A DNA stretch of 15,722 nucleotides, taken from the IMG/VR virus record IMGVR_UViG_2602041549_000013, positions 1 through 15,722 of that record, one strand, 5' to 3'. A model generated the notes under the pieces. The model was not told the DNA's origin, ran no database searches, and saw nothing but the letters and a program-made list of their open reading frames with translations. The stretch is from a virus (lineage: Duplodnaviria > Heunggongvirae > Uroviricota > Caudoviricetes). The position numbers and the translations under genes are program-made. Below are positions 2,052 to 10,640 of this stretch, piece by piece. How positions within the stretch are numbered: position 1 is the first letter of the stretch; each line of letters starts with the position of its first letter.

Positions 2052-3818
2052 ATGAACACCACACTGACACCCGCAGATCTCGATCCCCGTCGGCAGGCCA
2101 TGCTGCTGTACTTTCAGGGATACCGCGTAGCCCGCATTGCTGAAATGCTGGGCGAGAAAGTTGCAACCGTTCACAGCTGGAAAAAACGCGACAAGTGGGG
2201 TGACTATGGGCCGCTGGATCAGATGCAGCTCACCACCGCCGCACGCTACTGCCAGCTCATCATGAAGGAGCATAAAGAAGGGAAAGATTTCAAAGAGATT
2301 GACCTGCTGGCGCGCCAGTCTGAGCGCCACGCGCGGATCGGCAAGTTTAACAATGGCGGCAACGAAGCCGACTTAAACCCTAACGTCGCCAACCGCAACA
2401 AAGGCCCACGCCGTCAGCCTGAAAAGAATGTTTTCACCGATGAACAGATTGAGAAGCTGGAAGAAATTTTCCATTCCTCCATGTTCAACTACCAGCGCCA
2501 CTGGTGGGAAGCCGGAAAAACCAACCGCATCCGCAACCTGCTGAAGTCACGCCAGATCGGCGCGACCTTCTATTTTGCCCGTGAAGCCCTGATTGACGCC
2601 CTGCTTACCGGACGTAACCAGATTTTCCTTTCTGCCAGTAAGGCACAGGCCCACGTCTTCAAACAGTACATCATCGACTTTGCCAAAGAAGTGGAGGTGG
2701 AGCTGAAAGGCGATCCGATGGTGCTTCCCAACGGGGCCACACTGTATTTCCTCGGCACCAATGCCCGCACTGCCCAGAGTTATCACGGCAACCTGTATCT
2801 GGATGAATATTTCTGGATACCGAAATTCCAGGAGCTGCGCAAAGTGGCTTCCGGTATGGCTATTCACAAAAAATGGCGACAAACCTATTTTTCCACGCCA
2901 TCCAGCCTGACACACAGTGCTTATCCGTTCTGGTCCGGTGCGCTGTTCAACCGTGGGCGCAACAAAGCCGATAAGGTGGACATCGACCTGTCCCACAGCA
3001 ATCTGGCCCCCGGCCTGCTGTGCGCAGACGGGCAATACCGCCAGATAGTCACCGTGGAAGATGCAGTGCGCGGCGGATGTAGCCTTTTCGACCTCGATCA
3101 GTTGCGCATGGAGTACAGCCCGGACGAATACCAGAACCTGCTGATGTGCGAGTTTGTGGACGATCTCGCGTCCGTGTTCCCGCTCAGCGAGCTGCAGGCA
3201 TGCATGGTGGACAGTTGGGAAGTCTGGACCGACTTTCATGCTCTGGCCCTGCGCCCGTTTGGCTGGCGCGAAGTGTGGATCGGTTATGACCCGGCAAAAG
3301 GTACGCAGAACGGCGACAGCGCCGGATGCGTGGTGGTGGCACCGCCAGCCGTGCCGGGCGGTAAGTTTCGCATTCTTGAGCGTCACCAGTGGCGCGGGAT
3401 GGACTTCCGCGCCCAGGCTGACGCAATCAAAAAACTGACCGAGCAGTACAACGTGACCTACATCGGCATCGACTCAACCGGCGTTGGTCACGGGGTTTAC
3501 GAGAACGTGAAAGCGTTCTTTCCTGCCGTCCGGGAGTTTGTCTACAACCCCAACGTTAAAAACGCCCTGGTTCTCAAGGCCTACGACATTATCAGCCACC
3601 GCCGTCTGGAGTTTGACGCCGGATATACCGACATTGCGCAGTCATTTATGGCAATCCGTCGCGCCACCACCGCCAGTGGCAACCGCCCGACCTATGAAGC
3701 CAGCCGCAGCGAAGAAGCCAGCCACGCCGATCTGGCATGGGCAACGATGCACGCACTGTTTAACGAACCGCTGCAGGGCGAATCCGCCAATACCAGCAAT
3801 ATTGTGGAGATTTTTTGA
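2052..3818 (+). CDS. P: terminase large (ATPase) subunit (P2 gpP-like), 588 aa
   Basis: Long ORF divergent from O; size and N-terminal sequence consistent with P2 gpP; its stop overlaps the start of the portal gene. Confidence 0.85.
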   Translation: MNTTLTPADLDPRRQAMLLYFQGYRVARIAEMLGEKVATVHSWKKRDKWGDYGPLDQMQLTTAARYCQLIMKEHKEGKDFKEIDLLARQSERHARIGKFNNGGNEADLNPNVANRNKGPRRQPEKNVFTDEQIEKLEEIFHSSMFNYQRHWWEAGKTNRIRNLLKSRQIGATFYFAREALIDALLTGRNQIFLSASKAQAHVFKQYIIDFAKEVEVELKGDPMVLPNGATLYFLGTNARTAQSYHGNLYLDEYFWIPKFQELRKVASGMAIHKKWRQTYFSTPSSLTHSAYPFWSGALFNRGRNKADKVDIDLSHSNLAPGLLCADGQYRQIVTVEDAVRGGCSLFDLDQLRMEYSPDEYQNLLMCEFVDDLASVFPLSELQACMVDSWEVWTDFHALALRPFGWREVWIGYDPAKGTQNGDSAGCVVVAPPAVPGGKFRILERHQWRGMDFRAQADAIKKLTEQYNVTYIGIDSTGVGHGVYENVKAFFPAVREFVYNPNVKNALVLKAYDIISHRRLEFDAGYTDIAQSFMAIRRATTASGNRPTYEASRSEEASHADLAWATMHALFNEPLQGESANTSNIVEIF

Positions 3819-4855
3819 TGGGAAAGAGTAAGAAGAACCGAGCTGCGGCGACGAAACAGATCCAGCTTAAAAGTCAAACTACAGCCGAAGCATTCAGCTT
3901 CGGCGATCCCGTTCCTGTTCTGGACCGCCGTGAACTGCTGGACTATGTGGAATGCGTACAGATGGACCGTTGGTATGAGCCGCCCGTCAGCTTTGACGGA
4001 CTGGCGCGCACCTTCCGCGCCGCCGTGCATCACAGTTCCCCGATTGCAGTAAAGTGCAACATTCTGACCAGTACCTATATCCCTCATCCGCTGCTCAGCC
4101 AGCAGGCTTTTTCGCGTTTTGTGCAGGACTATCTGGTATTTGGTAACGCCTACCTGGAGAAACGCACGAACCGATTCGGTGAAGTTATCGCCCTTGAGCC
4201 TGCCCTGGCAAAATACACCCGACGTGGATTAGACCTGGATACCTACTGGTTTGTGCAATACGGCATGACAACGCAACCGTATCAGTTCACGAAAGGCAGC
4301 ATTTTTCACCTGATGGAACCGGATATCAACCAGGAGATCTACGGCCTGCCCGGTTATCTTTCTGCCATTCCGTCAGCCCTGCTCAACGAGTCCGCCACGC
4401 TGTTCCGTCGAAAGTATTACATTAACGGCAGTCATGCAGGCTTCATCATGTACATGACCGACGCCGCGCAGAACCAGGAGGATGTAAACAACCTCCGTAA
4501 CGCGATGAAAAGCGCCAAAGGACCAGGTAACTTCCGCAATCTGTTTATGTACTCGCCTAACGGCAAAAAGGACGGACTTCAGATCATCCCATTGTCAGAA
4601 GTCGCGGCGAAGGATGAGTTTCTGAATATCAAAAATGTCAGCCGCGATGACATGATGGCAGCGCACCGTGTGCCACCGCAAATGATGGGGATTATGCCGA
4701 ATAATATTGGGGGGTTTGGGGATGTGGAGAAGGCAAGCCGTGTATTCGTCCGAAATGAGCTAATGCCACTACAAAAGCGATTACAGGAGATGAATGATTG
4801 GCTTGGCAAGGAGGCGATACGGTTTGATACCTACTCGCTAGATATAGCCCCATAA
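3818..4855 (+). CDS. Q: portal (capsid completion) protein (P2 gpQ-like), 345 aa from ATG 3818
   Basis: ATG at 3818 overlaps the P stop TGA (ATGA coupling); the ORF track starts 3 nt earlier at a TTG. Size and position match P2 gpQ. Confidence 0.85.
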   Translation: MGKSKKNRAAATKQIQLKSQTTAEAFSFGDPVPVLDRRELLDYVECVQMDRWYEPPVSFDGLARTFRAAVHHSSPIAVKCNILTSTYIPHPLLSQQAFSRFVQDYLVFGNAYLEKRTNRFGEVIALEPALAKYTRRGLDLDTYWFVQYGMTTQPYQFTKGSIFHLMEPDINQEIYGLPGYLSAIPSALLNESATLFRRKYYINGSHAGFIMYMTDAAQNQEDVNNLRNAMKSAKGPGNFRNLFMYSPNGKKDGLQIIPLSEVAAKDEFLNIKNVSRDDMMAAHRVPPQMMGIMPNNIGGFGDVEKASRVFVRNELMPLQKRLQEMNDWLGKEAIRFDTYSLDIAP

Positions 4856-4889: not shown

Positions 4890-5630
4890 TTACTCAATAG
4901 GTTCAAACTCATCTTGAGGAATCAGCGTCGATTGACAGGCTTGGCTTAGTACCCCTGATAATTTACATAATAACCGATAGTTATGAGGAGCATCATCGCT
5001 AATCTTTTCGACCGTTAAAGTGATTGATTTTGGATCATCCAATAACATCTTCTTGATGTCATTACTTAAATACCTAGGGCAGTAACCAACGATTTCAGCT
5101 GGTTTATCTGCACGAACGACAACAGCATCCCCATCGTATTCATTTTGAAGATCCAAGCAAAGACGCAAAATTTGCCCCGGTTTCAATTCAGATACACGAG
5201 CATTAGCTAAGCTATTCAAGTAACCAAGTCCATGTAAGAAGAAAAAATGCTCAAAGTTACCATCAGAATCAAAATCAATTTTTTTGAAAATCTGCAGCTG
5301 ATCAGTGCTTCGTAAGCCTCCCGAGCGAGCAAGAATATCGATAGGATTTACCTTATCTTCTTCAAATCCAAGCCATTTAATGAAACTCGGATACTCTGGA
5401 CGTCTCGGTGATAAAAGGCGATTTTTAAAAAGAGGAAACAATTCTTCCGATACATAAGTTTCACGAACATCACTCATGCCGCTAAACTTTGTAAATTTAG
5501 AAGATTTAAGAGCACCTTTGGTATACCTGAAAACATACCCCGATTTGCGCTCTTGCAAGTTACCAACAACATGCCAGTCTCTGGTATCTGGTGCCTGCCA
5601 TGCGACGTAAACGGAGTTTGTATTAGTCAT
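4890..5630 (-). CDS. kinase partner protein, 246 aa: N-terminal HipA-N/HipS-like region (approx. aa 1-110) fused to a HIRAN-like domain (approx. aa 125-215)
   Basis: Start ATG overlaps the kinase stop (ATGA at 5627-5630). N-terminal VVGNL...YVFRY...LFPLFKNRLLSPRRPE resembles the HipA N-subdomain-1 / HipS pattern; C-terminal LGYL...LKPGQILRLCLDLQNEYDGDAVVV...VGYCPRYLS resembles the HIRAN pattern. Domain calls are from motif memory, not a search. Confidence 0.5.
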   Translation of the reverse strand: MTNTNSVYVAWQAPDTRDWHVVGNLQERKSGYVFRYTKGALKSSKFTKFSGMSDVRETYVSEELFPLFKNRLLSPRRPEYPSFIKWLGFEEDKVNPIDILARSGGLRSTDQLQIFKKIDFDSDGNFEHFFFLHGLGYLNSLANARVSELKPGQILRLCLDLQNEYDGDAVVVRADKPAEIVGYCPRYLSNDIKKMLLDDPKSITLTVEKISDDAPHNYRLLCKLSGVLSQACQSTLIPQDEFEPIE

Positions 5631-6541
5631 TCTAGTAACCTTCTGCGATTTTCCATTACCATTAACGTTGCAAATCTACGTGCACTGTCGGATATACACG
5701 ATGAAGGCACTTGGTTAAACACATCTGTAATGGAATCTTCTGTTAAAACGCTCAACTTACCTAACCAATGGTCGCGAGCGGCAACTCTCCCTTCAACTGC
5801 ATGTTGAAATGCTTCAACAGTCAGCAAGGGCTTTTTATCAGTTTTTGCTTTGAATAGCTCAGAGCGAGCTTTTCTTACAAAACATGGGATTTGTCGATTT
5901 TTATCTTTAGTATTAAGCCGTTCGCTACGCTCATCATCTAACATCTCCCTTCCTAAACTAGCGGCATGATCGTATGTTGGACACAAAAACTGCTCACCAG
6001 TTTCATTGTTAAGCATGATTGCCCAATTTTCATGGTGGCGATCTTGATTACTCACAAGTGCATCGAGCATCAAATATCCACAAAATACATCTGCTGCATT
6101 TAGCCCGGTTAGATCATATACACTCGGAGGAGGCTTGATAGATTCCCTATCTAAACAACCCAAGACCCTTGTGACAGTGTGTTCTCTGACCCTTACCGGC
6201 TTTTCCCCGGCTTGTAAAGGCCCAGGATAATCGAATGTCGAACTGTGAAGCACTTCATTTCCCATTACCATCCGGAAACCAGATGGAATGATATTCTGAG
6301 TCACCACACCGAATCGACCATTGTATCGCGCCAAATCATAGCTAGCATGTGGAATGTTAAGCAAATGACATAACTCAGCAGCACACTTTTCAGACCAATG
6401 CTCGCCAGTACCTGGCCTAGAGTACTTAAACAACTGCAAATTTACAGTGTCATCGGAGAAATAGAACCAAAACTTCTCTTTGGTTCCTAACTGTTCAAGA
6501 TCGTTAGCTACGGGGCTAAGCTCTACCAATTGGTATGGCAT
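5627..6541 (-). CDS. short HipA-family (HipT-like) Ser/Thr protein kinase, 304 aa
   Basis: Gly-rich loop GTKEK near the N-terminus (aa 19-23); catalytic motif D167-R-H-H-E-N172 and downstream LCPTYD191 match the HipA catalytic and Mg-binding aspartate motifs. Region is visibly AT-richer than the phage backbone. Confidence 0.75.
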   Translation of the reverse strand: MPYQLVELSPVANDLEQLGTKEKFWFYFSDDTVNLQLFKYSRPGTGEHWSEKCAAELCHLLNIPHASYDLARYNGRFGVVTQNIIPSGFRMVMGNEVLHSSTFDYPGPLQAGEKPVRVREHTVTRVLGCLDRESIKPPPSVYDLTGLNAADVFCGYLMLDALVSNQDRHHENWAIMLNNETGEQFLCPTYDHAASLGREMLDDERSERLNTKDKNRQIPCFVRKARSELFKAKTDKKPLLTVEAFQHAVEGRVAARDHWLGKLSVLTEDSITDVFNQVPSSCISDSARRFATLMVMENRRRLLE

Positions 6542-6693
6542 CTGACATCCCTGTTTAGCGGATTATGAATAAGTTAGGTTCCATTTTATCCAAACATTGT
6601 CAAATACCCTAAGATTTATTAGATGATAGAGCGATACTGTATGCATGTCCAGCAATCAAATCAATATATAACTCTTATATGGCTTAACGCGCG

Positions 6694-6712
6694 CTCGTAT
6701 CCCCGCCACGCC
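6694..6712. other. candidate cohesive-end (cos) site
   Basis: Reverse complement GGCGTGGCGGGGATACGAG shares its first 13 nt with the 186-type cohesive end as I recall it (GGCGTGGCGGGGAAAGCAT); orientation and position beyond Q are as expected. Recalled sequence, not verified. Confidence 0.35.
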
Positions 6713-6761
6713 TGCCCGCTTTATGTAGTGGTTTTCATGCAGGTGCATGATCTACGCAAAA

Positions 6762-6781
6762 GCCCGCCAGTTCTGGCGGGC
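6762..6781 (-). terminator. perfect 9-bp stem hairpin next to the cos candidate; possible - strand terminator or part of the cos/terminase region
   Basis: GCCCGCCAG-TT-CTGGCGGGC; on the - strand it is followed by TTTTGCG. Confidence 0.35.
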
Positions 6782-7054
6782 CTTAGCAAAAACGATCCTC
6801 AAACGATCATGCAATCTCATGCAGCATAGACATGCACAGACGAGTAAAGCGAATCGGACTTTACGCAAGGTGAACTCCTCAGCGGGTATAATCAGTATGT
6901 CGGAAAATCTCTAAAAATAAATAATTCGGTTAACAGGTATGCTTACAAAAGCATATATTTGATTAAAAATCATGTAAGGGGGAGGATCTCAAACTGAATC
7001 GCCACGGGTTTTGCAAATTTCGATAGTCTCTCTAACGTTTCGGCTGAGGTCAAA

Positions 7055-7480
7055 ATGAAAAGCTTTTACGTATTAATTTTAATTCTGGTTGCAAGCTTTG
7101 TTAGCGTCCCAGTTCAGGCGGTAACAGCTAAAAACTATGAGAAAGGAACTAAAGCTCAACAGAAATCAATAGCTTACCTTTCATGTGCATTCTATGGCAG
7201 TAGCACACAATTAGATCCTAGCTACACGGGGCAAGTACCTACAGCCGATATCAAGATATTACAGAAAGCAGCTTACCACGCTTACAACGATGCGCTCTCA
7301 TACTTAGGCTATGAGGAACCAGATCACGAACAACGCATAATTGATTATGCTGAATTTGTGGCGTCGCAAGAAGCTGTGTTATGGGATAAGCCGGGAATGA
7401 ATGGAAAGCAGGTAACACTAATTGCTCGTTCTCTCTACAATGAGAGTAACTGTAACTTGTTACTGGACTCAATTAAGTAG
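7055..7480 (+). CDS. secreted protein of unknown function, 141 aa, with a cleavable signal peptide
   Basis: RBS GAGGT upstream of the ATG; N-terminal MKSFYVLILILVASFVSVPVQA with AxA-type cleavage site; two Cys in the mature part; AT-rich gene and upstream region. Confidence 0.55.
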   Translation: MKSFYVLILILVASFVSVPVQAVTAKNYEKGTKAQQKSIAYLSCAFYGSSTQLDPSYTGQVPTADIKILQKAAYHAYNDALSYLGYEEPDHEQRIIDYAEFVASQEAVLWDKPGMNGKQVTLIARSLYNESNCNLLLDSIK

Positions 7481-7639
7481 GAAAAAGATGGTATTTTGCC
7501 CGTAGTTTCAACCTTAATCTCCGAACCTGTCGCAGAACGGGCGTTCACTCATCAAATAAACGCCACACCTAACGCCTCACTGTACTCGTTGTTCAACCTT
7601 GCTGACGCCAGAACCAAGTTCAGACGCCAGCAACTTTTC

Positions 7640-7873
7640 TTAATGCAGCCAGCTGTCGTCTTCCCACACCTTCTGCATAATTTTCATCACTTGTTTTCTT
7701 TCTTCGTCCAGTTGCAGTCCGGTCAGTTCCACACCGTTAGAGCTACCTTTGCGGATGCGAATTACCGTTTTGGGATACAGGGGGCGCAGATTGCGGTAAA
7801 GCTCTGATTCAAGGGCGTCCAGGGTAGACTGGTTAATCTTCTGCTCTTTATCGATCATTATTTCAATGCGCAT
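7640..7873 (-). CDS. DinI-family protein, 77 aa from ATG 7873
   Basis: MRIEIMIDK...LDALESEL...YP...WEDDSW aligns with the E. coli DinI pattern; GAGGTG RBS 6 nt upstream of the ATG; the longer ORF-track start at 7945 is not used. Confidence 0.8.
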   Translation of the reverse strand: MRIEIMIDKEQKINQSTLDALESELYRNLRPLYPKTVIRIRKGSSNGVELTGLQLDEERKQVMKIMQKVWEDDSWLH

Positions 7874-7883
7874 AAAAGTCACC

Positions 7884-8072
7884 TCAACTGATGACATCCA
7901 TTGAGCGGTTGTATTCGTGAGTTCTGATTTTTGCCATGAGTTCATCAGTCAACTCAGAAACCCACTGCAGAGCCAGCCCCTTCTCTTCATCACTACACTC
8001 ACTAGCCGCTACAAGCTTAAGAAAAAAATCAATGCGCTGGAGCTTCAAAGACTCCAAAAAATAGTCCTGCAT
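7884..8072 (-). CDS. small SOS-regulated protein, 62 aa; possible Tum-like antirepressor
   Basis: First gene downstream of the LexA box; AGGAGG RBS before ATG 8072; forms an operon with the DinI-like gene. The 97-aa version from 8177 would contain the LexA box and is rejected. Function is inferred by position only, by analogy with the 186 tum operon as I recall it. Confidence 0.45.
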   Translation of the reverse strand: MQDYFLESLKLQRIDFFLKLVAASECSDEEKGLALQWVSELTDELMAKIRTHEYNRSMDVIS

Positions 8073-8113
8073 CTTTCCTCCTATGACACCACACGCAACA
8101 CTGTATGTATAAC

Positions 8114-8133
8114 CACTGTTTATATTTACAGTA
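8114..8133 (-). promoter_or_regulatory. LexA (SOS) box in the promoter of the small-ORF/DinI operon
   Basis: CACTGTTTATATTTACAGTA has a perfect CTGT-N8-ACAG core and matches 17 of 20 positions of the consensus TACTGTATATATATACAGTA; an extra CTGT half-site at 8101-8104; a TTTACA -35-like hexamer lies at 8151-8156 on the - strand. Confidence 0.7.
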
Positions 8134-8225
8134 TATAATAATCTTACTGATGTAAAACGTTTTTTTACATTCATCACCCTGATATACCTGGTATTATTAA
8201 GAGCACGAATTGTTAACCCGCGTAA

Positions 8226-10640
8226 TTAATACAGGTTCCGCCACTGATCATCTTCCTGCAAACGCTGGTTCCGATAGAAGATACGCAGGCCTGCTCCTGA
8301 CGGAATACTGCCTCCGCGAAGGAGTAAATCGACCTCTTTCTCGCTGCCATCAAATCCTCTGGACTTCAGCTCATACACGAGCTGCAGTCGCTGATGGTCT
8401 GTAATTCGCTGTTTGTAGTCTTTACGCCGTTTCGGTTTCACCAGGCGTAACCTTGCAGCCAGTTCCCGGCGCTCTTTTTTGCTCATACTGTGCAGGTAAT
8501 CGTGCAACTCCTTGTCATCCATGCGGGTAATGTCCGTTCTGGTATCCCCATCAGCTGATTTGTCTTTCCCTTGTTGGTTCAAATTTTCAGCAAGGGGACA
8601 GTTATTGCCACGAGTCCAAGGGGCGCAAGCGCCCTGGTCGGCTGCCGCCTCCTGAACGTCAACGGCCTTACGAACCATTTTCCACTTCACTGCATGAGTG
8701 CAGATCTTGCCCTCTGCAATGGGTGACCAGATGCCATAAATACGAATACCGTGATCGCCATAGGCGGTTGGCTCTTCGTTGATTTCATAAGCGGTTCTGA
8801 TGAGGTGATATTTGCGGGAAACCAGTACGCCGCCCTGCTTCATGATGTAGGTGGCAAAACAACCAGCATCAGCAGCAGCCAGGATGGCATCAAGGCGCGG
8901 GTTATCCAGTACCGGCGCACCTGCTTTTTTGTCACCCTGTTGCCTTGCCGCCTGACCAGCCAGCAATCGCAGTTCACGGTAAGCCTGACGCCCCGGAATG
9001 CCAAAGAAGCGGAATTGCTGAACACGATGCAGAGACGCCCAGGCATTAACGTATTCAGCGTTATCACGCAGGGATTTACCCGTTTCCTTACTGATCTCGC
9101 CAGCCAGACCACACCCGTCAATATTCTTACTGATATATTTCGCAATGTAGCTTGTCGGCGTTCCTTTGCGCGGGTTTATCAGCTCAGACTTAAAGCGTGG
9201 CCCCGTGTTATTGCCCAGCTCCTCGCGGTCTTCACGGATGGCAAACTTACGCAACAATGCAGTAATGGCGCGGCGGTCTTTTTTACGCATGAAACACAAC
9301 AGGTGCCAGTGAACTGTGCCGTCATGATGCGGCTCAGCCACCCGCACGCCATACCAGCGCAACCCGGCTTTGTGCATAGCCTTACGAAATGCAGCAAACA
9401 TGCCGACCAGATAATCGCTGCTTTGTCTTACTGTCGCGTTGGTCCAGGTCGGGTTTGGCCTGCCGTTATTTAGCGTGGAATGGAAACGTGACGGACAGGT
9501 GATGGTGTAGAAAACGGCGCAGTCACCACGCATTTCCGCGATAAGCTCCAGGCCTTTAACACAGGCCATCATCTCATTGCGGCGATGCGCCGGGTTGCTG
9601 CTGCTGGCGTTTACCACATCCTCCATGTTCAGCGTGTCGCCGTCTTCGTTCACCAGTTCATGAGAACGGAAAAACTCCAGCGACTTACGGCGCTGCTCAC
9701 GTTTATGCATCACGGCTTCATAGCTGACATAGGGAGATGCTTTTTTGCTGACCAGGCAGACAGCACGCAACTGCTCTTCCCGCCATTCGCAACGCATCTT
9801 CCATAATTTCCGATACCACCAGTCGGCGCACAGCATACGCGCCAGCGAACCCGGAATGAGTTCATAGGGCACAGGTTTGCGGCGGTTTCTTTTCCGGCGG
9901 AGTTGCTCAAACGCAGGCGGTATGACATCCAGTCGCAGGGTTTCTGCAGCCACCTTTTCCCATGTCTTGCGGATTTCTTCTGGCTTAACATCATCGGAGG
10001 CGTACAAATCACCACAAGCGGCATCAAGACACATGCTCATATGCGCAGCGACAAGGGTAGACAGGCGTTTCACCTGATCCTGACTCATTTCAGGCAGGAT
10101 CAGCAGACCGTCCAGCCCTTCATGGCTTGCCATAAAACGAAAAGATGCAGATAGCTGGCTGTCGCGTACATGCTCCAGTCGTTCCAGACATGGCTTAATC
10201 GTCTCACGCAAATAGCGGGAATAAGCCTTTGGCCTGCCCAGGCTGCTGAAATATTCAATACGTTGCATCAGCGGCTTGCTGATATGGGAAGGCTGGGCGT
10301 TGACGTCGGCCAGAATGACCATGTCCGGATTAAAACGCTGCTGCTCATGCGCCATCTTTGCCCGGCTAATGAGCTTATCCTGCTCCATTTCGCGTTGGAC
10401 AGGATCACGGGATTCATTAAAGAAATAACGCTCCCAGACCTGATCACTCAGTGCCTCGCGGCGCAACTGTTCCTGCTCGTTATCGGCAGCGTACAGAGTG
10501 ATCAGGTTTGAAAGCGTAGAAACCGGCGCAACTTCCGCCGGGTCCAGATAAGGGTTAATGGCCTTTTTCGGGCTGTTCCATGAGAATGCTGCGGCAGCCT
10601 CGTTAAAGCCGCAGCAGTTGTTCATATCGGCATGACTCAT
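8226..10640 (-). CDS. A: rolling-circle replication initiator / endonuclease (P2 gpA-like), 804 aa
   Basis: HUH-type motif VHWHLL and active-site tyrosine motif YIAKYISK typical of gpA-type Rep proteins; start ATG overlaps the dam stop (ATGA). Confidence 0.85.

Follow-up and report, generated by a model that had tools for sequence, protein, structure and literature searches.

In the 15,722-nt stretch of viral DNA analysed here (the window; IMG/VR record IMGVR_UViG_2602041549_000013), a short segment lies between the head genes and the replication genes of a P2-type phage, bordered by cargo on both sides, and the question arises as to what this segment is. An initial annotation had proposed a candidate cos site with an adjacent hairpin, a proposal that is supported by alignment with P2 and 186 including the flanks, by identity to the annotated sites of the phages SEN8 and Cartapus, and by the same gene neighbourhood in about 100 loci. 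We conclude, with a probability of roughly 0.88, that a Fels-2-like prophage of the P2 family (Peduoviridae) has its cos packaging site at window 6687-6837, and that the hairpin within it is most likely the terminator of the early operon. The identity of the site as cos is already known, in that the same sequence is annotated as cos in public phage records, and it is widespread in E. coli and its relatives.

Gene context of the site

Genes in the window were assigned by Pfam. A P2-type major capsid protein (1-1059) and a gpO scaffold (1076-1909), both on the minus strand, are followed on the plus strand by a gpP-like terminase large subunit (2052-3818; Terminase_6N 5e-65, Terminase_6C 8e-49, Terminase_5 (gpP-like) 3e-27), the expected cutter of cos, and by a gpQ-like portal (3815-4855; Phage_portal 6e-19), which marks the left-end side of cos. 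On the far side of the site, two minus-strand genes follow: a dinI-like gene (7640-7945; DinI 2e-22), the last of the A-side early operon and reading toward cos, and a gpA-like replication initiator (8226-10640; Phage_GPA 7e-127), which marks the right-end side. The resulting arrangement, N-O-P-Q-[cargo]-site-[cargo]-dinI-A, corresponds to that of a P2 prophage, in which the junction of the circular genome comes to lie centrally, and the succession P, Q, cargo, cos, cargo, dinI, A has the same layout in about 100 loci, in P2 and in 186. The orientation is likewise the one that had been expected beyond Q, since along the minus strand cos is followed by cargo and then by Q, the latter encoded on the other strand, which matches P2 (cosL 1-19; Q 187-1221, complement). 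Compared as a whole, the window aligns over about 75% of its length with two Peduoviridae, Escherichia phage vB_EcoM-813R9 and Klebsiella phage 4LV2017, at 96-97% identity.

A cohesive-end sequence in register with those of P2 and 186

The minus strand of window 6694-6712 reads GGCGTGGCGGGGATACGAG (plus strand, CTCGTATCCCCGCCACGCC), letter for letter as initially annotated. Also borne out, by comparison with the 186 record (NC_001317), was the claim that 13 contiguous nucleotides are shared with the 186-type cohesive end: nucleotides 1-13 of the 19-mer, GGCGTGGCGGGGA (6712 to 6700), are the first 13 of the 186 sequence GGCGTGGCGGGGAAAGCAT. In the GenBank records of both P2 and 186, bases 1-19 are annotated as the cohesive end, and a gapless comparison in the same register as these record ends yields 15/19 identical positions with 186 and 14/19 with P2 (GGCGAGGCGGGGAAAGCAC; NC_001895). 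The pattern GGCGNGGCGGGGA has a single exact match in the window, at the 19-mer, while arithmetic gives a chance expectation of about 0.002 per 15.7 kb on two strands for a pattern of 12 specified bases.

Junction sequences, made by fusing the right end of each of the P2, 186 and SEN8 records to its left end, were then aligned with the minus strand of the window. The 19-mers fell into register, base for base with the annotated ends, and the flanks were conserved too, with TGCAT(G/T)AAAACC...AAGCGGGC(A/G) before and (C/T)GCGCG after the 19-mer. In Salmonella phage SEN8, the 'putative cos site' (bases 1-19) is identical to the window 19-mer, which is also printed as the cos site in the SEN8 genome announcement (PMC5427200), and the same 19-mer is part of the 59 bp at the start of the Escherichia phage Cartapus record, which are labelled 'putative cos site, homologous to the cos of P2'; both annotations, being 'putative', are homology-based. 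Several records end at corresponding positions, those of SEN8 and EtG at the equivalent of 6712/6713, and fiAA91-ss cosR and the P37 start at that of 6694. Thus, related phages place their cos at this position of the window rather than elsewhere. Our literature search with the 19-mer and its reverse complement retrieved the SEN8 announcement as the sole user of the sequence, by annotation, and no paper with measured virion ends for the type ending in ATACGAG.

Given the register with the P2 and 186 ends and the identity to SEN8 and Cartapus, we assign the 19-nt cohesive-end sequence, cosN, to 6694-6712 on the minus strand. By analogy with P2 and 186 we infer nicks between 6713 and 6712 on the minus strand and between 6693 and 6694 on the plus strand, which would give 5' overhangs.

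Extent and occurrence of the conserved block

Of 50,697 phage records searched by BLAST with the region, 104 match; the matches cover only window 6679/6688-6837, and among them the sequence on either side of this 150-bp island is unrelated. The same limits emerge from 43 Fels-2-type regions, in which identity climbs sharply at 6837 and falls after about 6688. When a 2-kb query spanning the site (window 5600-7600) was compared with complete E. coli genomes, 1275 of 5426 matched, and in most of the rows listed the homology, including the left-hand cargo, ends exactly at 6837. The BLAST matches and the conservation profile thus delimit the whole conserved cos block to 6687-6837, about 150 bp of non-coding sequence, read on the minus strand, with variable cargo on both sides. 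Its conservation is asymmetric, extending over about 125 bp on the A (replication) side of the 19-mer and about 7 bp (GCGCGC) on the Q (portal) side.

To sample such sites more broadly, IMG/VR was scanned with GGGCNGGCGNGGCGGGGA, which retrieved at least 119 contigs. Five of the matches (L015, L060, L092, L106 and L107) were GC-rich sequences that match by chance and lack the flanks; they were left out of the alignment, which comprises 114 non-identical cos regions and in which the GGGC...GGGGA positions are invariant by construction, as they belong to the search pattern. Among the 119 matches listed, the window type of 19-mer, ending in ATACGAG, accounts for 40, the P2 type for 29, a type ending in ATAGCAT for 18 and the 186 type for 11, the remainder being several rarer types; endings in AGACGAG and GAACGAG have been published for Smp131 (PMC3931495) and for SEN4 and SEN5 (PMC5261728), respectively. 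The initial suggestion of a variant cos is therefore correct in that the 3' part differs from P2 and 186, but it overstated the novelty, as the standard Fels-2-type ending is ATACGAG, which is more frequent than any other among the matches listed and has close published relatives. The type of 19-mer follows the head-gene lineage, with a Q that is 75-99% identical to the window Q in ATACGAG loci, compared to about 62% in the other types.

Where these matches have sufficient flanking sequence, in roughly 100 loci, A lies upstream and reads toward the site, while Q lies downstream on the other strand. A further nine loci among the matches have neither A nor Q and are P4-like satellites, in which the block is found just after psu, as in P4. 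Cos is the only region common to P2 and P4 (PMC9122126), so that the position of the satellite block beside psu fits a packaging signal borrowed from the helper.

An ORF of 68 aa on the plus strand (6623-6829) spans the block, and some GenBank records place a 'hypothetical protein' over the homologous stretch; the five GC-rich contigs mentioned above, in turn, illustrate that the core pattern can be matched by chance. That the segment is coding, or owes its resemblance to cos to GC-richness and chance, can nevertheless be practically dismissed. Homology begins at 6687, about 21 codons past the start of the ORF; this start is not conserved and lies outside the conserved block, for which reason we rejected the coding explanation, and the ORF product has no conserved features. 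Furthermore, the block is common to satellites and distant lineages, with indels and motif-wise conservation, and the flanks, the synteny and the register are all in keeping with cos.

A different matter is whether a site that is cos by descent is still in use. P2-like prophages in enterobacteria are often cryptic, and the 15.7 kb of the window contain only part of this prophage: gpM would sit beyond the capsid gene and thus outside the window, where the genes for tail, lysis and ogr would also be located. It could therefore be that the phage is inactive and, with it, the site, a dead relic in a defective prophage that is never cut. We regard this as quite unlikely, because the visible phage genes are all full-length with strong family matches, because the cos block is 92-97% identical to the blocks of induced or isolated phages, and because none of the conserved motifs of the block was seen to be disrupted in the window.

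Motifs within the block

Read on the minus strand from the A side toward Q, the block consists of three TGCATG boxes (6836-6808), a GATC pair (6808-6794), the hairpin and its TTTT (6761 to 6758), an ATGCA-cc-TGCAT element (6749-6736), AAAACC...AAAGCGGGCA, the 19-mer (6712-6694) and CGCGCG (6693-6688). On the Q side of the 19-mer, the (C/T)GCGCG(C/T) box (6687-6693, minus strand) comprises alignment columns G171-C176, each of them invariant or with a conservation of at least 90% across the 114 regions. On the right-end side, the same alignment defines a proximal core (6713-6743, minus strand; cTGCATGAAAACC...AAAGCGGGCA) that includes a TGCATG box at 6736-6741; its TGCAT, AAAA and AAGC columns either do not vary or are conserved in at least 90% of the sequences. 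The core motifs TGCATnAAAACC...AAGCGGGCr and yGCGCGC are all present at 6687-6743, in columns that are at least 90% conserved in the 114 regions and align with P2 and 186. The 55-bp cos core of Ziermann and Calendar (1990), in the form in which it is cited in PMC3931495 and PMC5694545, corresponds to about 6687-6744, that is, to the 19-mer, the GCGCGC box and the proximal core; the distal boxes and the hairpin fall outside this cited core, yet are conserved. The Cartapus record, for comparison, begins at the equivalent of 6745 and labels bases 1-59 as cos.

The sequence TGCATG occurs five times in 6713-6837, against 0.056 occurrences expected from the rest of the window (Poisson P = 4e-9). Besides the box in the proximal core, there is an inverted copy on the plus strand (6744-6749; columns T116, G117 and C118 at least 90% conserved), which together with the former makes up the ATGCA-cc-TGCAT pair (6749-6736) and overlaps a GATC at 6749-6752. 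The other three are direct copies on the minus strand, delineated by enrichment and conservation (6831-6836, 6818-6823 and 6808-6813, together 6808-6836) and spaced by 13 and 10 bp. The columns of the TGCATG boxes show no variation or at least 90% conservation across P2-, 186-, Fels-2- and P4-type regions. Conservation of at least 90% in the 114 regions extends to the TGCAT boxes, AAAACC and GCGCGC, none of which is part of the search pattern. We infer that the long A-side arm is the terminase-binding part of the site, comparable in role to cosB of lambda, and regard the TGCATG boxes as candidate binding sites of the terminase small subunit (gpM).

Between the direct boxes and the hairpin lies a GATC-N7-GATC pair (6794-6808, direct repeat of AAACGATC x2), two Dam sites 11 bp apart. 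It is present, with differing spacers, in 38 of 41 ATACGAG-type regions and rare in the other types; it is absent from 28 of 28 P2-type phage regions and from 7 of 7 AGAGCAT-type satellite regions counted.

A hairpin at a fixed position within the block

The perfect 9-bp-stem hairpin that had been noted at 6762-6781, about 50 bp off the 19-mer, is indeed present, with the stem starting 50 bp from 6712. On the plus strand it reads GCCCGCCAG-TT-CTGGCGGGC; on the minus strand, GCCCGCCAG-AA-CTGGCGGGC (6781 to 6762) is directly followed by TTTT (6761 to 6758), so that fold and conservation delimit the feature to 6758-6781. Perfect stems of at least 9 bp arise in 0.08% of shuffles of equivalent 60-nt regions; neither the hairpin nor the 19-mer is plausibly due to chance. 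The minus-strand RNA is predicted to fold at -27.6 kcal/mol (z = -5.1 relative to shuffles) into a stem of 8-11 bp with a GAAC loop, next to UUUUG, while the plus-strand version is without a U-run. In the U tract UUUUGCGU, four U are consecutive and five of eight positions are U; UUUU is followed by GCGU, and the tract can pair with the A's upstream. A scan for consensus terminators did not flag the hairpin at 6762-6781. The same scan flagged a weak 5-bp hairpin at 6716-6731 on the plus strand, which lies inside the conserved core and which we judged not meaningful. A search of 6300-7200 against Rfam (E <= 1) returned nothing, the hairpin thus not being a described RNA family.

The hairpin recurs in relatives of the window. 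Perfect stems in 42 Fels-2-type regions have a median length of 9 bp, at position -69, and at least four T are found in the next 8 nt in 37 of the 42. Across the 114 sequences, 73.7% of cells pair, compared to 27-44% with slid partners, and there is covariation at the outer pairs, the outermost of which alternates between G-C and C-G. Outside the Fels-2 lineage, weaker inverted repeats with different arms and without a T-run occupy the same position (-70 to -50) in 186 (6 bp), P4 (8 bp) and P4-like satellites (5-6 bp), while P2 itself has no repeat and a stem of at least 6 bp occurs in only 1 of 28 P2-type phage regions. The long GC stem with a T-run is found in the Fels-2 lineage only.

Its placement relative to the early operon is equally regular. 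In vB_EcoM-813R9 and many IMG/VR loci, the dinI stop lies about 135 nt upstream of the hairpin and about 204 nt before the 19-mer, which makes the hairpin the first strong one past the last early gene. In the window, dinI ends 860 bp upstream of the hairpin, the two being split by a 0.86-kb insert with an opposite-strand ORF (7055-7480). This insert, the short U-run and the miss in the terminator scan are features that speak against a terminator.

Since the U-run is present on the minus strand only, the hairpin would terminate only leftward transcripts, that is, those from the A-dinI operon. Both roles initially proposed for the hairpin, termination of leftward transcription and a part in terminase recognition, retain some support. 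We lean towards the view that its main role is that of an intrinsic terminator of the A-orf-dinI early operon, embedded in cos. The presence of the repeat in 186 and P4-like satellites without a T-run, however, can be used to argue for a role in packaging or DNA structure. The hairpin of what would be the same cos site could then be primarily a packaging element, either a symmetric binding site or extruded DNA for terminase or a host bending protein, and its likeness to a terminator would be incidental or secondary. Consistent with this, the satellites have only the packaging signal in common with their helpers, pairing over the 114 sequences exceeds both the shuffle and the slide controls, with changes on both sides at the outer pairs, and the core of the hairpin, CCAG-NN-CTGG, is conserved in sequence, as would be the case for a protein site. 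We nevertheless consider a primarily packaging-related hairpin possible but clearly less likely than a terminator. The repeat is mostly absent from P2-type regions, so that at least one terminase of the family can do without it; P2 terminase nevertheless packages P4 DNA (PMC9122126), in which an 8-bp stem is found at this place. Moreover, the Fels-2-type version adds exactly the features of a terminator, a long GC stem and the T-run, on the strand of the incoming operon only, and the shuffle control of the pairing provides no probability for related sequences.

Terminator and recognition or structural roles are not mutually exclusive. In our reading, the cos arm has long carried an inverted repeat that it can do without, and in the Fels-2 lineage this repeat was built up into a terminator. 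Its position is a family feature; its terminator-like form is lineage-specific.

A more far-reaching proposal would be that the distal 95 bp, with the three TGCATG boxes, the GATC pair and a dual-role hairpin, are more than linked sequence and make up a composite module for regulation and recognition that is peculiar to the Fels-2 lineage, in which the small subunit would sit on the boxes, the hairpin would tie terminase access to the end of early transcription, and Dam methylation of the paired GATCs would gate cutting. GATC methylation does gate cutting at the pac site of phage P1. From our searches and to our knowledge, such a module is undescribed for P2-like phages, and we rate it as rather unlikely.

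Discussion

By analogy with P2 and 186, packaging at this site could proceed as follows. Terminase (gpP, 2052-3818, together with gpM) would recognise the block on replicated phage DNA, the small subunit presumably binding the TGCATG boxes on the longer A-side arm, and would introduce two nicks 19 nt apart, at 6713/6712 (minus strand) and 6693/6694 (plus strand). The 5' single-stranded ends, GGCGTGGCGGGGATACGAG and its complement, would re-anneal after injection. The hairpin, fixed inside the cos block of this lineage, would end the early A-orf-dinI transcript before it reaches the cleavage site, the cargo and the head genes; additionally, or instead, it might be a structural element read by terminase.

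The site would fix the genome ends of the prophage and is at the same time the boundary between two known hotspots of cargo and defence genes in P2-like phages. The comparative cos map obtained here, with five TGCATG boxes, a position-fixed repeat and a lineage-specific GATC pair, is a small by-product that leaves the overall picture unchanged, but it does provide targets for work on recognition by P2-type terminases and for P2/P4-style cosmids with Fels-2-type helpers.

The sites closest to that of the window are those of SEN8 (KT630647.2; Felsduovirus) and Cartapus (OV696611.1; Elveevirus), which share with it the 19-mer, its flanks (preceding AAAGCGGGCA and following CGCGCG), the TGCATG boxes, the hairpin and the position relative to the portal; they differ in the flanking cargo and in a few block substitutions, the SEN8 stem, for example, being GCTCGCCAG/CTGGCGGGC with one mismatch. 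Phage 186 (NC_001317) and PSP3-type sites agree with the window in the 19-nt length, the flanking core, and the three distal and two proximal TGCAT boxes. The 186 overhang differs at positions 14, 16, 17 and 19 (AAAGCAT, as against ATACGAG in the window), and its inverted repeat, CGCCAG-AG-CTGGCG, is found at the same distance as the window hairpin, but with only 6 bp and no T-run; the annotated terminator t95b of 186 lies further upstream, outside the block. P2 (NC_001895) and P4 (NC_001609) have the same kind of site, with a 19-nt, GC-rich 5' overhang and a conserved core, and P2 cos likewise lies between the A-side accessory genes and Q, flanked by hotspots of accessory and defence genes. 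Unlike the window, P2, which matches it at 14 of 19 positions, lacks a central hairpin, and the one in P4 is different, with 8 bp and no T-run.

With lambda cos (cosQ-cosN-cosB) the analogy is functional only. Both consist of a nicking site and a longer, asymmetric arm of short repeats, which in lambda binds the small terminase subunit, but there is no sequence similarity, and the overhang has 12 nt in lambda compared to 19 nt here. In the window, moreover, the conserved arm is located on the chromosome end that lies away from the terminase and head genes, unlike that of lambda.

Sequence variation within the cos block

Seven P4-like satellites (IMG/VR loci L009, L026, L036, L056, L087, L089 and L104) carry cohesive-end 19-mers of the form GGCG(T/G)GGCGGGGAGAGCAT, ending in AGAGCAT, an ending found in none of the helper-type loci, that is, those bearing A and Q, among the matches listed. 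This confinement of the AGAGCAT ending to satellites in the loci listed suggests, from sequence comparison, that the terminase is not strict about the 3' part of the overhang.

The cos arm, the 125 bp of the cos block on the gene A side (6713-6837), contains three GATC (Dam) sites, compared to about 0.5 expected: one at 6749-6752 and a pair, GATC-N7-GATC, at 6794-6808. Among the matches listed, this pair is kept in 38 of the 41 cos regions with the ATACGAG-type 19-mer of the window, while its 7-nt spacer varies between these regions (GTTTGAG, CAAAAAG, CAAATTG and others). Only one of twelve 186-type cos regions among the matches listed has the pair, and it occurs in none of the P2-type phage or AGAGCAT-type satellite cos regions counted. 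The GATC pair might be a hint of methylation-sensitive recognition.

The loop of the hairpin at 6762-6781 (window 6771-6772; columns 114-115 of A1, our alignment of 114 cos regions) varies among Fels-2-type regions between AA and TT, the second form occurring in, among others, L022, the closest relative of the window among the matches listed, while the stem of the perfect palindrome stays the same; L022, L024, L041, L062, L080 and L119 exemplify this variation. Such a swap is what inversion of the whole hairpin would be expected to produce and could have arisen in this way, but two point changes could also account for it. Two long-range inverted repeats also bracket the cos block, one of 17 nt with 82% complementarity (6550-6566/6921-6937, 354 nt between the arms) and one of 8 nt that is perfect (6642-6649/6829-6836, 179 nt between the arms). 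The arms of the latter are simply two octamers containing TGCATG, and both repeats are probably due to chance or motif-driven.

Genes on either side of cos

Between dinI and cos lies an inserted ORF of 141 residues (7055-7480, + strand) with a clear signal peptide (MKSFYVLILILVASFVSVPVQA) and a promoter-like site at 6930-6959; it is transcribed away from cos and yielded no match in Pfam, NCBIfam or PADLOC. The 2-kb stretch of the window that includes this ORF (5600-7600) has some match in 1275 complete E. coli genomes, of which LR-71-1 alone matches 80% or more of the stretch; in the other E. coli genomes among the matches listed, homology ends at 6837. The overlap of two mechanically called ORFs, the dinI-like 7640-7945, whose Pfam DinI match spans residues 39-100 only, and 7884-8177, contains a hairpin (7878-7895, - strand) that resembles a terminator, has a T-run and lies upstream of the DinI domain. 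This hairpin may be a spurious consensus match.

The interval between the portal gene Q and cos is occupied by a low-GC cassette of two genes (4890-6541, - strand); its match in PADLOC is PDC-M03, a candidate defence system. PDC-M03A (5627-6541, - strand; PADLOC E = 2.7e-122) has a weak HipA_C-like match in Pfam, and PDC-M03B (4890-5630, - strand; E = 6.8e-93) a HIRAN domain. P2-like phages possess a hotspot for anti-phage systems adjoining cos (PMC9122126), and it is within this hotspot that the PDC-M03 cassette is located.
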